DNA from: Heterodontus francisci
Taxonomy: Eukaryota
DNA length: 64,000 nt
NCBI RefSeq assembly: GCF_036365525.1
Contig: NC_090411.1
Location: forward strand, 31,636,432-31,700,431
Direction: 5' to 3'
The notes beneath the pieces were generated by a model. It was not told the origin of the DNA. It did not search any database and saw only the letters and a list, made by a program, of their open reading frames with translations. Shown here in pieces: positions 8,956 through 62,750 of the stretch. The translations under genes were made by a program, and so were the position numbers. Position 1 is the stretch's first letter; the number at the start of each line of letters is the position of its first letter.

Positions 8956-9713
8956 TTAGCTTCTCCACGAGGTATGCTCATCGAACAAGTACTCTCCCAT
9001 GCTATTGTCAGGGGCTCCCAGTCTCTTCAGGTTGGTGATGTGATCTCCAAGCTTCTTGATCATCTTCACTTGCTCATCCAAGTAGTGAGTCTGCAGGAGG
9101 TTACAAAGCTGGATAAAGAGGAAGGAAAGAGCCAGAGAAATGAGGGCAGAAAATCCAAGTTCCACTCTGAGAGAACAGCATAACAGGTACTCTCAGGAAT
9201 AGGACAACAGATTTTATATAGTGATGGCATAAAAATATTACAAAACCTCCCGGTTGAATGCTGCTGGTAGGATGTTCAAGTCATTATTGTGGAGCACAGC
9301 CGAAATCCCAATTGAACAGAGCAGGTTGGTGCAATGAATTCACCTGTGAAGATCAAAGGAAACTTTAACGGATTGCACTCCTCCCTCCAGTAGAGAATCT
9401 AGAACTTACGTGAGGGTCAGTGTTGCCAGTAGAGAGTTTGTGCAGATCCAGCAGACTCTGGTTCACACCCTTCTCCATCTGCAGAGCTCTCTGCATTGCC
9501 TCCAGACCATTGCTCCACTCATCCTGCTCTGGCTTCTGGTCCTAATATTATTCAATAACAACTTTAGTTTACAGTTACATTTATTCCCCACCACTCACTG
9601 ATTTAATATAAAGTGGAGGAAAACCCAATGCAGGTGCTCACAGAATTAAATGATCGTAAGTCCCCAAGACTCGCATCGAATCCCTTGTAGTTCTGATGTA
9701 CCTGGGAAGCCAT
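8956..9713 (-). pseudogene. Ferritin copy A: internally deleted (first 9 codons of exon 1, no exon 2, exons 3 and 4 open)
   Basis: ATG at 9713 reads MASQVHQNY, then non-ferritin sequence to TAA at 9603. Exon 3 9535-9410 ([10 protein letters not shown]...DPH|gtaagt); exon 4 9108-8956 ([15 protein letters not shown]...HTSWRS*). No exon 2 found. Confidence 0.85.
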
Positions 9714-9945
9714 CCTTAATAATAAATTACACAGCAAAGTGGCCAAAAACCTTATTCAAAACCCCTCTCACCAGTTTCTATGTTTATACTGTTAGGAACA
9801 GTACCCCCACTTACCCCTTTAATACAGGAAGTAGTTGCCTAGATGATGAGTGACAGTTGCCAGTAACCAATCAGATCTTTATCCTCACTCCGAGCACCAA
9901 TCAAGAAAAAAAGGATTGGCAGTGACACCCAGAGCCAATCAAAAC
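9714..9945 (-). promoter_or_regulatory. Diverged ferritin-type proximal promoter of copy A
   Basis: TATAAA (plus-strand tttata about 9783), TGAGTGACAG at about 9847, CCAAT boxes at about 9867, 9897 and 9935, and 'acccagagccaatca' shared with copies B-D and F. Confidence 0.6.
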
Positions 9946-10059
9946 ATTGAAAGATGGCCACATTGGATGACCACTGACTGATGATGACATTACTGCTCCA
10001 ACTGTGACAATGAGGATTGAGAGATCCAGAATCACAAAGGTTTGTAATTTACTGGTTGG

Positions 10060-10790
10060 AGAGCGATGTCTCAATTCATTCCATTTTCGCCGCCTCTGGA
10101 GAATCCTTGGCATCAGGTGGCAGGACCGTATCTCCAGCGCAGAAGTCCTCGAGGCGGCCAACATCCCCAGCATATACACCCTACTGAGCCAGCAGCGCTT
10201 GAGATGGCTTGGCCATGTGAGCCACATGAAAGATGGCAGGATCCCCGAGGACGCATTGTACAGCGAGCTCGCCACTGGTATCAGACCCATCGGCCGTCCA
10301 TGTCTCCGCTTTAAAGACGTCTGCAAATGCGACATGACGTCCTGTGACATTGATCACAAGTTGTGGGAGTCAGTTGGGATCCCCGAGGAGGCATTGTACA
10401 GCGAGCTCGTCACTGGTATCAGGTCCACTGGCCGTCCATGTCTCCGCTTTAAAGACGTCTGCAAACGCGACATGAAGTCCTGTGACATTGATCACAAGTT
10501 GTGGGAGTCAGTTGCCAGCGATCGCCAGAGCTGGCGGACAGCCATAAAGGCAGGGCCAAAGAGTGGCGAGTCGAAGAGACTTAGCAGTTGGCAGGAAAAA
10601 AGACAGAAGCGCAAGGGGAGAGCCAACTGTGTAACAGCCCCAACAACCAATTTTATCTGCAGCATCTGTGGAAGAGTCTGTCACTCTAGAATTGGCCTTT
10701 ATCGCCTCTCCAGGTGCTGCTTCACAAACCACTGACCACCTCTAGGTGCTTACCCATTGTCTCTCGAGACAAGGAGGCCAAAGAAGAAGG
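10060..10790 (+). mobile_element. 5'-truncated RTE-clade LINE with an internal 138-bp in-frame tandem duplication
   Basis: 'RILGIRWQDRIS..EVL...RLRWLGHV..M.DGRIP..ALYSEL..G.R..GRP.LRFKDVCK.DM' RTE motif, C-terminal CxxC finger, (gaa)n tail; repeat units 10239-10376 and 10377-10514. Confidence 0.9.
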
Positions 10791-11062
10791 TTGTTCATAA
10801 TTCTGGAAGGTTCAATGATTTAGTTATTTGCAGTTGGCTTTGGCTTTGATACAACTTCCTAACAAATCAGACAGTCTGCAGTGAGTCTTCAAAGGAGCCA
10901 ACATTGAGCCAGACGAATGGAAAGTCAACCTGATTATCAGGAATGTGCTGGGCTTGAAGAGACCCTGCAGTGCCATCTGGCTAGTCCCACAAATTAATCC
11001 CTTTGATCACCCACTCCCTCAAACACCTATTTGGTGCTCCCTTAAGTTTTCCCCATACTCAA

Positions 11063-59380: not shown

Positions 59381-60315
59381 CCATGATGTATTTGGTGTTG
59401 GCTTTCCTCAAACTGAATCTGTTCAGAATCAGCAATTCATAGTGTAATTGTATGAGTTTGTTAATGGAAATCCCATTTTGCATAATTCAATCCAAATTAA
59501 GATGGCTTGGAAAATTGATGTTACCCCAGGTGGGTCTAGACCACATCAGGGATACCACCCTTGACCACAAAAGATGGAAAGTGAGCCACACTGACTCTAC
59601 AAACCAACCAACAAATTAGGGAAATAGAATATGGAGAAGCTTTAAAGTGAACATTGTTGCTCTGCATCATGCTGTAGAGCTGGAGCATAATCCCCATGGA
59701 ATTTAAGACCTGTAAAGTCACAGTGCACTTGCTACAAAGTGCAAGTCTATTTTGAGGGAAGATTCAGGAGCTCAATTCGTAGGGGTCTCTTACTACCTGA
59801 CCCACGCATCTCCCTGTACTCAAGCTGGACATTGGTAAACATACCCATTTGGTGAATAAGGGTAGAGATATTAAACAAATGGTAGATTAAGATGGTTAAT
59901 TCTAGACTATAATAAGTGGACAAAAAGGTCACATGCAAGTACTAATTGGGTATCCTTTCCCAATATTCCACAAGTTCATAATATTTCATCTACAGCAGCA
60001 AGAACACTTCTGTAGCAGAAACTGCATATTTCAGATACCCTCCACAAGCTTCTCAAAGCAAATTGGGAGATGTGAGTAAGTTATCCTCAGCAGGCATTGA
60101 ACCAAGGTTGGGAGGCTGGCTTGGGAGAGGGAAAAGGTTTAAATGGAATCATTATATAACTAGGCATAATGATCTGAATAATCAAATCAGCTACTGAATA
60201 ATACAAAGATCAGCTCCATGATGAATACTTTTATTTCCATATACAGCAAGGAATGAGAAAACTGGCAATCAAAAAGCATTCAGCGAGTACAGAATTAATA
60301 GTTGTAGAACCCCAA

Positions 60316-62528
60316 TCAACTCAGCGTGTGCTTGTCAAACAGGTACTCTCCCATGCCATTGTCAGGGGCTCCCAGTCTCTTCAGGTTGGTGATGTGATCT
60401 CCAAGCTTCTTGATCATCTTCACTTGCTCATCCAAGTAGTGAGTCTCCAGGAAGTCACACAACTAGAACACGAGAAAAAAAAAAGGGTGAGTATAGTTAG
60501 CTTAAAAAGAGAATCTTCATCGGATAAGATTTATTTTTATTTGCACTGGGATAATGGTGAAAGTACTGTACATGGGAGCAAGACTTGCTTTAGAGAAAAA
60601 GCACAGGCAGTGGGCCAAGTGATCAACACAGAAGGAAATCAGATTCTGTGGCTATATTTAGCCAGACAAGGCCACAATTTACCCACATGTGGCATTTCAA
60701 TTCAATTACACTGAGAGTTAACTCAAGATTGATGCCAGAGAAACCAAGCACCTTGTGAACCATTGAGTGATCCAGATCTACAGTGTAGAAGTCTTTTTCC
60801 TAAAAAGACCTGAAAAACTTACAGAATGCTACTGGAGTTAAAAGGCAGATTCTAATGATCATCTTCAAACCTGAAAACTCATTCCAATATTAAACTTACA
60901 TGAGGGTCAGTGTTGCCAGTGGAGAGTTTGTGCAGATCCAGCAGACTCTGGTTCACATCCTTCTCCATCTGCAGAGCTCTCTGCATTGCCTCCAGACCAT
61001 TGCTCCACTCATCCTGCTCTGGCTTCTGGAACAAAATAGTGGTCCTGTTAGTGGGAGTGCAAAGTCCAAGGGATGTTATGCTCAAGGTCAACAGGGTTAG
61101 CAGTAACAAAGATAATCTGTGCATCCCAATACTATGAGGGATGGGGTTTAATCACTGGGTTGACAGACAATTACAGGACACTGGATCAGTTCATTGACTG
61201 CCATTTTGGCAGAAGCTCCAATCCCAATTTTCTCTCAATCCTAAACTTCATCCGTGGGAAGTCCACAGCTGTGGTCCACATCCTCCAGAAAGTTAACTAG
61301 TTAAGCATTATGTTTGAGCCAATAGTTTACAGTACAGAAATTGTTCCTTCTCAACATCTATTTTTTGACCCTGTATGTATAGAAGATCTGTCATACTAAC
61401 TCATCAATACTAAGAATTTTACTCATTAATCTCTAGGTTGAGAACTTCAGTTATTAGAATAAGGAACAGTCACTGAAAGTATCCAAGTTAGAACATAGAC
61501 TCCTTTAAGTTCAGATCCCAACCTTGATGTTCTCCAAGATGATTCGGCCTCCACGTTTATTCTGGAATTTCATCAGTTTCTCAGCGTGTTCCCGTTCCTC
61601 ATGTGACTGCTCCTTGAAGAACTCAGCAAAGTGACACAGGGCAACATCATCCCGGTCAAAGTAATAGGACTGCAGGTAGAGGCAAAATGGGAAGGGAAGA
61701 GGTCAGATCCCAATCTCATTTATGGCCATGTCAAAAATGGTGGTAGTATCATGGTAAATAAATCACCCATTCTTTACCTCAGAAGAATTTGCTTTCAATT
61801 AAGGGGCTTGGTTTTTCCAAGTTTATGCTGTAAAATACTAAATATGTTGAAATGCTCCTCCCAGTGACATTACAAAAAGCAGTAATACTATTTGGATCAA
61901 AGTTTCATTTCAGCATTTAAACTACATATATCAACAGGACATCCTTTGTCCCCCAATGAAGATACAAGTGTTTGAAAAGTTTCATTCAGTAGAATAAGAC
62001 TTTTAGATTACTGCTTCATGTAAAATCATTACTCATACAAAAAGATTTCAGCACCACAGGATTTACTCATTTACAAAGGGGGAAAAGATAAGCCAGAACT
62101 AGTCAGACAATGTTTCACTAACTATTCACTAAACTTAATTGTTGCCATTCAAGTTGGAAAAGTTAACTAGGTTTATACATCTTCAACATGAATCCTCTGT
62201 TGGAAACATCATGGAGTCTTGGAGTTACTTTCAAAACTGGAAACAAATATTAGAGCAAGGAATAGAGTCCCTGTTTCAAGGGCATTTACTGATTTAAGTC
62301 TAGGGGGAAAACTAGAAATATATATTATAAACCCAACTGATTGACCTAGAGAAATTCTAGCTACTCAAAATGCATTGAAATTCCAGTCTTAACTTTTAAA
62401 CAGGACCCCAAGAAAACAATACACACCATGGAAAGATAAACATAGGAGGAATAGAGCTCCAGGTTGATTTGCTTGTTAACAGCATCTTCACAGTCCTTGT
62501 GGTAGTTCTGACACACTTGAGAGGCCAT
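60316..62528 (-). CDS. Ferritin heavy/middle-type subunit, copy G (173 aa; an extra in-frame ATG at 62531 would give 174 aa)
   Basis: Exons 62528-62427, 61669-61523, 61025-60900, 60462-60316; GT-AG; ferroxidase centre intact; ends DKHTLS*; AATAAA 60235-60230. Confidence 0.95.
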
Positions 62529-62531
62529 CAT

Positions 62532-62750
62532 AATCTTCACTATGAACAGAAGCTAAATTCAAACAACAATATAACTGCTTCCTACCCAAGCTCTTGTATT
62601 TATGCTGCTGGGACAGCCTGCATTCAAACAGGGAATGACATCATTAATGATGATTGACAATTCCAGGTAGCCAGTCAGGAATCGCTCATGAATCCAGGCA
62701 CCAATTAACAATGTAGACGGGCTGTGGGGGTGGACCCAGAGACAATGAGA
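62532..62750 (-). promoter_or_regulatory. Ferritin G 5'UTR and promoter
   Basis: CATAAAT, TGACATCA, TGATTGACAA and CCAAT colinear with the other copies. Confidence 0.65.

Follow-up and report, generated by a model that had tools for sequence, protein, structure and literature searches.

Tandem clusters of ferritin genes have been described in several sharks. In the Greenland shark, 155 FTL and 179 FTH1 matches were reported in clusters that are syntenic with those of the white shark and show ovary-specific expression (Sahm et al., 2024; 10.1101/2024.09.09.611499); the accessible text of that study labels the copies FTL or FTH1 by similarity and makes no mention of iron-responsive elements (IREs), iron, or gene conversion. 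Sharks were found to be generally expanded by Yang et al. (PNAS 2026; PMC13214024), with up to 59 'FTH1b' copies (one cluster of 55 and another of 4), some of which are expressed in fin and blood. Those authors suggested a link between ferroptosis and longevity and noted that shorter-lived sharks are expanded too; their panel is without Heterodontus, and IREs, ligands, the ovary, and conversion are not analyzed in the available part of the paper. Here, we analyzed a 64-kb stretch of the 6.0-Gb genome of Heterodontus francisci (C41:31,636,432-31,700,431, C41 being contig NC_090411.1; hereafter the window), which holds the left-hand end of a ferritin tandem array, array A. The array is large and ancient, and shark arrays of this kind have been described before. 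In our preferred reading, to which we give a probability of roughly 0.6, the genes were multiplied to raise ferritin dosage for iron storage in the oocyte, have escaped IRE control, and stay uniform through gene conversion.

The array resembles the Greenland and white shark clusters, which are large, ancient, tandem, and mostly full-length (~4 Mb near a chromosome end; Sahm et al., 2024); the likeness is by description, as no Greenland shark sequence was among the database protein matches. It is also like 'FTH1b' in forming a large and a small tandem cluster on one chromosome, apart from FTH1a, and in including copies with exons 3 and 4 only. The two clusters have 95 and 14 loci here, and the 84 intact genes exceed the published maximum of 59, with counting methods that differ (Yang et al., 2026). 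Other sharks carry copies as well: the array proteins are 89-93% identical to multi-member clusters in seven shark species. Database proteins of the H. francisci array are already machine-annotated as ferritin heavy chain B-like or oocyte isoform-like. The first-pass annotation of the window, made from its letters, had named prior characterization of the cluster as a reason to drop its proposal; clusters of this kind have indeed been reported in sharks, while IREs, ligands, and conversion are not described in the accessible parts of those reports. Our literature search, which was incomplete and whose blank is weak, turned up no study that examines shark ferritin arrays for IRE loss, conversion, or synteny.

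When the four exons of one window copy were used as BLAST queries, exons 1 and 2 each gave six matches in the window and exons 3 and 4 each gave seven, every one on the minus strand. Together with the splice, promoter, and poly(A) annotation, they confirm the seven head-to-tail ferritin copies first noticed there (window positions 8956-62528), six of them intact with four exons and the seventh a pseudogene. The exons of the intact genes measure 102/147/126/147 nucleotides (nt), with a last exon of 153 nt in the copy at 20.5 kb (A02), GT-AG borders are present at 18/18 introns, and the open frames encode 173-175 amino acids. A TATA-like box lies 76-84 nt ahead of the ATG in five of the six genes by a strict pattern and in all six by a wider one, and AATAAA follows the stop codon within 135 nt in every case. 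The copies are as follows, in window positions.

60235..62604, minus strand: ferritin gene A07; exons 62528-62427, 61669-61523, 61025-60900, 60462-60316; TATA at 62604; AATAAA at 60235; 173 amino acids

55167..58225, minus strand: ferritin gene A06; exons 58141-58040, 56824-56678, 56142-56017, 55411-55265; 173 amino acids; R63W

44862..48377, minus strand: ferritin gene A05; exons 48300-48199, 47413-47267, 45879-45754, 45111-44965; 173 amino acids

36154..40391, minus strand: ferritin gene A04; exons 40311-40210, 39403-39257, 37431-37306, 36414-36268; 173 amino acids; L173

26114..29254, minus strand: ferritin gene A03; exons 29175-29074, 28254-28108, 27371-27246, 26385-26239; 173 amino acids; L173

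17270..20648, minus strand: ferritin gene A02; exons 20571-20470, 19300-19154, 18020-17895, 17551-17399; 175 amino acids; E134K in the three-fold channel (1/68 core genes)

8956..9940, minus strand: pseudogene A01, the terminal array copy; promoter remnant; nine-codon exon-1 remnant 9713-9687; no exon 2; exon 3 9535-9410; diverged exon 4 9108-8956

The first-pass annotation had suggested that the array may continue beyond the window, and it runs 617 kb past its end, with A01 as locus 1. Across the genome, 117 exon-2 matches were found, 91 of them at C41:31.65-32.31 Mb and 13 at C41:26.67-26.83 Mb. Array A comprises 95 loci over 670 kb (71 intact, 15 broken, and nine incomplete). The second cluster, array B, lies 5 Mb away at C41:26,667,352-26,838,774 with 14 loci that mostly alternate between two gene types, 13 of them intact, and more decayed copies occur at 26.37 Mb; intact array genes thus total 84 (71 + 13). 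Copies 1-26 of array A are on the minus strand and copies 27-91 on the plus strand. The block A06-A24 recurs inverted as A31-A48 with 93-98.5% identity; A07 is paired with A47 (97.8% non-coding identity) and A06 with A48 (96.2%). Much of array A was built by inverted block duplication and direct higher-order repeats, and dead genes were copied along with live ones (A51/55/60/67, A20/A37).

Such an inverted block is also what duplicated haplotypes in the assembly might produce, and the first-pass annotation had raised this concern for the window copies. These differ from one another at 13-27 of 522 coding nt (94.8-97.5% identity, with just 0-2 differences in exon 3), and their introns are of unequal length and ~66-80% alike where alignable, except for one patch of ~110 nt. 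The 68 intact array A genes that form our core set, over which the pairwise statistics below were calculated (2278 pairs), still represent 60 genes when collapsed at 97% non-coding identity and 44 at 90%, and the array sequence analyzed is gap-free; a stretch of N at 2170-3140 of the window is outside the ferritin genes. An assembly artifact is therefore extremely improbable.

The A39 protein matched the ferritin domain PF00210 at E 4e-38, and PDB ferritins were matched at E about 1e-82, with the top scores divided between frog M and human H variants. Judged from sequence, the array ferritins are animal maxi-ferritins by this domain and by the vertebrate four-exon structure, and their family suggests that the product would assemble as a 24-mer with ferroxidase activity. 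Ferroxidase numbering was anchored on the E27 motif, and the roles of ligand and channel residues are those we assume for ferritin numbering. The ligands E27, Y34, E61, E62, H65, E107, and Q141 are all kept in 6/6 window genes, as had been observed, and in 64/68 core genes. E57, E61, and E64 are likewise present in all six intact window genes, with histidine at position 60. The first-pass annotation had read these residues as a likeness to amphibian H/M and teleost M chains; they are no marker of an M chain, because the true FTH1 of the same genome, on contig C14, has identical residues, as does ray FTH1. The array shares the ferroxidase ligands and E57 with amphibian H'/M and teleost M chains (bullfrog M, PDB 1mfr family), at 71.6% identity to bullfrog M and 75% to frog H. 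It is equally close to pig H (74.4%) and to the FTH1 of its own genome (74.4%), and it is without an IRE.

The first-pass annotation had further proposed that copies with different pore residues form a combinatorial set, in which diversified subunits would give mixed 24-mers with tuned pores or kinetics. The core copies do encode 67 distinct proteins out of 68, the four-fold channel varies chiefly at position 173 (H in 50, L in 18), both states of which recur in other sharks, and position 63, beside the ferroxidase site, is R, W, Q, or K. Pore differences in the window come down to this position 173 and the single E134K of A02. In the three-fold channel, H118 and D131 are present in 68/68 core genes and C130 and E134 in 67/68, and L169 is found in 68/68. 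On average the proteins are only 4.3 residues off the majority, 55 of the 105 variants occur only once, and each of codons 9, 49, and 63, which rank among the most variable, is a CpG hot spot. The ratio of nonsynonymous to synonymous variation (pN/pS) is 0.19 in pairwise comparisons and 0.31 over distinct variants. Variation among the core copies is, on this sequence evidence, best described as purifying selection plus mutational noise and not as designed diversity, and we regard combinatorial cages among these copies as very doubtful.

The absence of an IRE, as claimed for the window, was upheld: Rfam found none in the whole 64 kb, nor in a further 14 stretches of the array totaling 140 kb. 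Within 144 kb including the window, Rfam found three IREs, all at single-copy genes (FTH1 on C14, A94, and near A93); the two scans cover part of the arrays. A pattern scan of the 300 nt upstream of every four-exon array gene also found no IRE and recovered those of A94 and FTH1. The array copies scanned are without an IRE, and single-copy ferritins keep one. The intact copies of array A and array B share a proximal promoter, of which one example is given.

48378..48560, minus strand: shared proximal promoter with inverted CCAAT-like GAYTGG boxes, a CRE (cAMP response element)-like element, and TATA

In the core genes, the CRE-like element was found in 63/68 and GAYTGG in 67/68, compared with 0/5 for both in single-copy ferritins, and an AATAAA-type poly(A) signal is present in 68/68. 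The promoters of array B (CRE-like 9/13, GAYTGG 13/13) align with those of array A at best E values of 5e-7 to 7e-6, and single-copy ferritins align far less. With 71 intact array A genes and no IRE in the copies scanned, the suggestion of a high-dosage, transcriptionally controlled set gains support.

Identity between array copies falls off within ~20 nt of every splice site, and their untranslated regions (UTRs) diverge by 35-44%. For the 1429 of 2278 pairs with less than 25% alignable non-coding DNA, synonymous codon differences were 20, 4.2, 1.6, and 5.8% in exons 1 to 4, and for 38 recent pairs (94.8% non-coding identity) they were 1.8, 2.2, 0.8, and 4.4%. Four-fold sites differ by 39-74% from array B and the single-copy genes and are therefore free to change over longer times. 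The four-gamete test was failed by 442 of 1035 informative site pairs. One transfer between copies has left a scar in the window.

17888..18150, minus strand: conversion scar in A02 intron 2/exon 3; A02's own acceptor and the first 17 nt of exon 3 (18144-18128), then an A06-type intron end and exon 3

The tract, 244 bp long, is 97.1% identical to 56010-56253 in A06 (96% for the segment as a whole), and the other six non-coding segments of the A02/A06 pair are 0.53-0.68 alike, against an unrelated baseline of 0.55. This scar is a direct sign of transfer between copies. GC-biased conversion was rejected as the cause of silent-site identity (four-fold GC of 0.55, inside the range of single-copy ferritins). 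Homogenization through complementary DNA is disfavored, as the UTRs diverge and the A02 scar holds intron DNA.

KRTAP1 and HSPA1A/B are intronless genes with few copies. They are like the array in that coding DNA, including silent sites, is uniform, flanks diverge, and borders are sharp, a pattern ascribed to conversion plus selection (10.1101/282418; PMC5865164). The shark array differs in that the pattern is repeated exon by exon across ~70 genes.

According to the dosage reading, ~70 intact, IRE-less genes with near-identical exons would mass-produce one ferroxidase-competent ferritin in the ovary, and the product would stock iron for the large, yolky egg. Loss of the IRE would release these genes from the iron-dependent translational block, selection would act on dosage, gene conversion likely keeps the exons uniform, and subunits of different copies would co-assemble as near-equivalents. 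Oocyte expression and the iron-stocking role are suggested by analogy with the ovary-specific Greenland shark cluster, and ferritin is reported in frog eggs and snail yolk (PMC11719527).

Evidence for transcription in the germ line came from processed copies. There are 19 dispersed ferritin loci: nine array A retrocopies, three A-type loci without a junction, two of B type, three of FTH1, one of A94, and one unassigned. The nine array A retrocopies are intronless, span exon junctions, carry poly(A) in some cases, and represent eight events; because such processed copies need it, some array copies must be transcribed in the germ line. One ferritin retrocopy is present twice on contig C48 (4.63 and 4.73 Mb), 101 kb apart with identical flanks, as a segmental duplication or an assembly duplicate. 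The A34 introns are spanned by contigs from two other organisms; contigs were compared from six runs, all of other organisms, with RNA status guessed. Their depths, very uneven between runs of one sample, were not used for level or tissue. A metagenome scan gave 30 loci, all at 78% identity or less, and none was used.

Several points weigh against the dosage reading or limit it. Per gene, the array has left fewer retrocopies (eight events/68 genes) than FTH1 (3/1), so germ-line transcription is shown and a high level is not. The counts of promoter motifs are not independent, as the copies share descent; the link of these motifs to oocytes is presumed, and a literature search for it gave nothing relevant. 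From pair to pair, the non-coding segments vary together (r 0.52-0.82), with only 15 discordant pair-segments; tracts therefore seldom leave exons, and some of the exon identity could be due to selection on silent sites. Exon 1 is also far less homogenized, as its 20% synonymous codon differences in old pairs indicate. Transcription of some copies in fin and blood means that expression is not strictly ovarian (PMC13214024). Lastly, 24 of the 95 loci are dead.

These dead loci are equally what largely neutral birth-and-death amplification would leave, with few copies that matter and conversion alone keeping the rest looking intact; block duplications carry dead with live genes, and conversion can repair silent copies. 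Such a history is harder to reconcile with a promoter core and a poly(A) signal that are kept though introns and UTRs drift, or with large arrays that persist across shark orders, and we consider it unlikely.

The dosage reading may be extended by array B, all 13 intact genes of which have K62, H57, and H58. In the tree, array B and its E62K relatives from six other shark genera group as a distinct clade (support 100); its promoters align with those of array A, and it has left the two retrocopies counted above. Co-expression of the two arrays might yield an egg-specific, H/L-like mixed cage, an addition compatible with dosage that we hold as a possibility at less than even odds. Array B is without E57 and is not a classic nucleation chain, and the loss of activity by E62K is presumed here from mammalian L chains.

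Conversion may also act on the rate of change. In theory, neutral sites diverge between species at the usual rate under unbiased conversion, and sites under purifying selection are slowed (PMC3924837). The majority sequence of another organism's array-type contigs differs from A34 at 10 sites, two of which are private to A34 and at most two of the other eight silent. From the same run, four A94-type loose-end pieces differ from A94 at 19/109 nt, 17 of them silent as counted by eye. Silent sites may thus look frozen between shark species, a lead only, from a small sample with an 88% likeness filter and contigs of guessed RNA status from an organism at unknown distance. More speculatively, and we think this a minority chance, conversion among ~70-100 copies would magnify weak selection, purging silent change while a few amino-acid changes sweep the family, and array A and the E62K array would co-assemble as an egg-specific, iron-independent ferritin. 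If true, the silent-site freeze would be a natural test of the Mano-Innan prediction.

A somatic role, in which the copies protect against ferroptosis and lipid peroxidation and are tied to longevity, is the reading proposed by Yang et al. (2026; PMC13214024), and the expression of some copies in fin and blood fits it. The count of intact genes is higher here than the highest they reported, in a species outside their panel, with the same reservation on counting methods. Having lost the IRE, the genes would no longer follow cell iron, and position 22 is K or Q in 68/68 core copies, compared with R in FTH1 and A94. This arginine is presumably the NCOA4 contact. To our knowledge, H. francisci is not noted for extreme age. 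We judge a longevity role improbable.

Family placement also separates the array from FTH1. The FTH1 gene on C14 has an IRE, lies ~50 kb from BEST1, and groups with vertebrate H chains; array A has none of these three features. To the left of the last copy are CHMP2A (~25 kb) and a TRIM28-like gene (~65-105 kb), RUVBL2 is 1.1 Mb from the array, and a receptor protein tyrosine phosphatase (PTP) gene, subtype not resolved, is on the right flank; this annotation scanned 80 and 90 of 947 candidate frames for the two flanks. We take the CHMP2A, TRIM28, RUVBL2, and receptor PTP neighbors to be genes of human 19q13, on the FTL chromosome. Between the two settings that the first-pass annotation had weighed, array A sits at an FTL-chromosome-type (19q13) locus and not at the FTH1-BEST1 locus. 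This placement by neighbors, beside IRE-bearing and L-like single-copy ferritins, is unlike the account in the available part of Yang et al. (2026).

Glycogen synthase was rejected as a synteny marker, with genes on C41, C14, and C27. The C14 gene lies 1.35 Mb from FTH1, and a gene at the end of C41 spans more than 320 kb. BAX was not located in the genome, as the search was swamped by dispersed matches and one candidate on C41 stayed ambiguous. Well over 100 matches to profile positions 1-60 of the Bcl-2 family are dispersed through the genome, which suggests a Bcl-2-like exon in a repeat or mass retrocopies. From the statement of Yang et al., another L-like gene would be expected close to FTH1 on C14; searches that set a lower bound found none.

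In a quick IQ-TREE analysis of 96 rows, without teleost M or mammalian L rows and with deep forks unresolved, the array fell into a chondrichthyan clade of its own, and no grouping with amphibian chains was supported. A ferritin labeled Aeromonas veronii (866-base record) groups with catshark A94-type proteins and is probably host contamination in the database.

At its right end (C41:32,255,257-32,317,315), array A closes with four single ferritin genes that have diverged, A92-A95. A92 is ligand-poor, with E61K and H65Q. A93 has no ATG at its exon-1 match, and a degenerate IRE with a non-canonical loop lies 3.8 kb upstream. A94 has all seven ferroxidase ligands and a canonical IRE. A95 is L-like, with its ligands lost and without an Rfam IRE; its relatives are named 'lower subunit-like' in four other elasmobranchs, and one is named heavy chain B-like. 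A 10-kb stretch at C41:32,330,432-32,340,431, located between the final ferritin gene and that for the phosphatase, is wholly masked as repeat.

Within the window, a retroelement-like fragment with a 138-bp tandem duplication (9901-10735), without a Pfam match, lies immediately upstream of the A01 promoter. An intact non-LTR (long terminal repeat) retrotransposon at 49339-53264, minus strand, has a 323-amino acid frame for a GDSL esterase and a 992-amino acid frame for an endonuclease/reverse transcriptase, an arrangement we take to be CR1-type. It ends ~0.9 kb upstream of A05 and has a 96% relative on C48, and decayed relatives are present at 32.0-36.1 kb and 21.9-22.8 kb. Tx1 elements seated in array promoters were not confirmed in the window, where the intact element keeps that distance from A05; fragments are also scattered in the flanks and on other contigs.

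For shark biology the array is of modest importance, in that it weakens the published association of longevity with the number of ferritin copies. It re-places the cluster on the FTL chromosome and offers egg iron provisioning as a testable function. The array is, in addition, an unusually large, intron-bearing instance of exon-limited concerted evolution, which could open conversion-selection theory to test in existing shark genomes.

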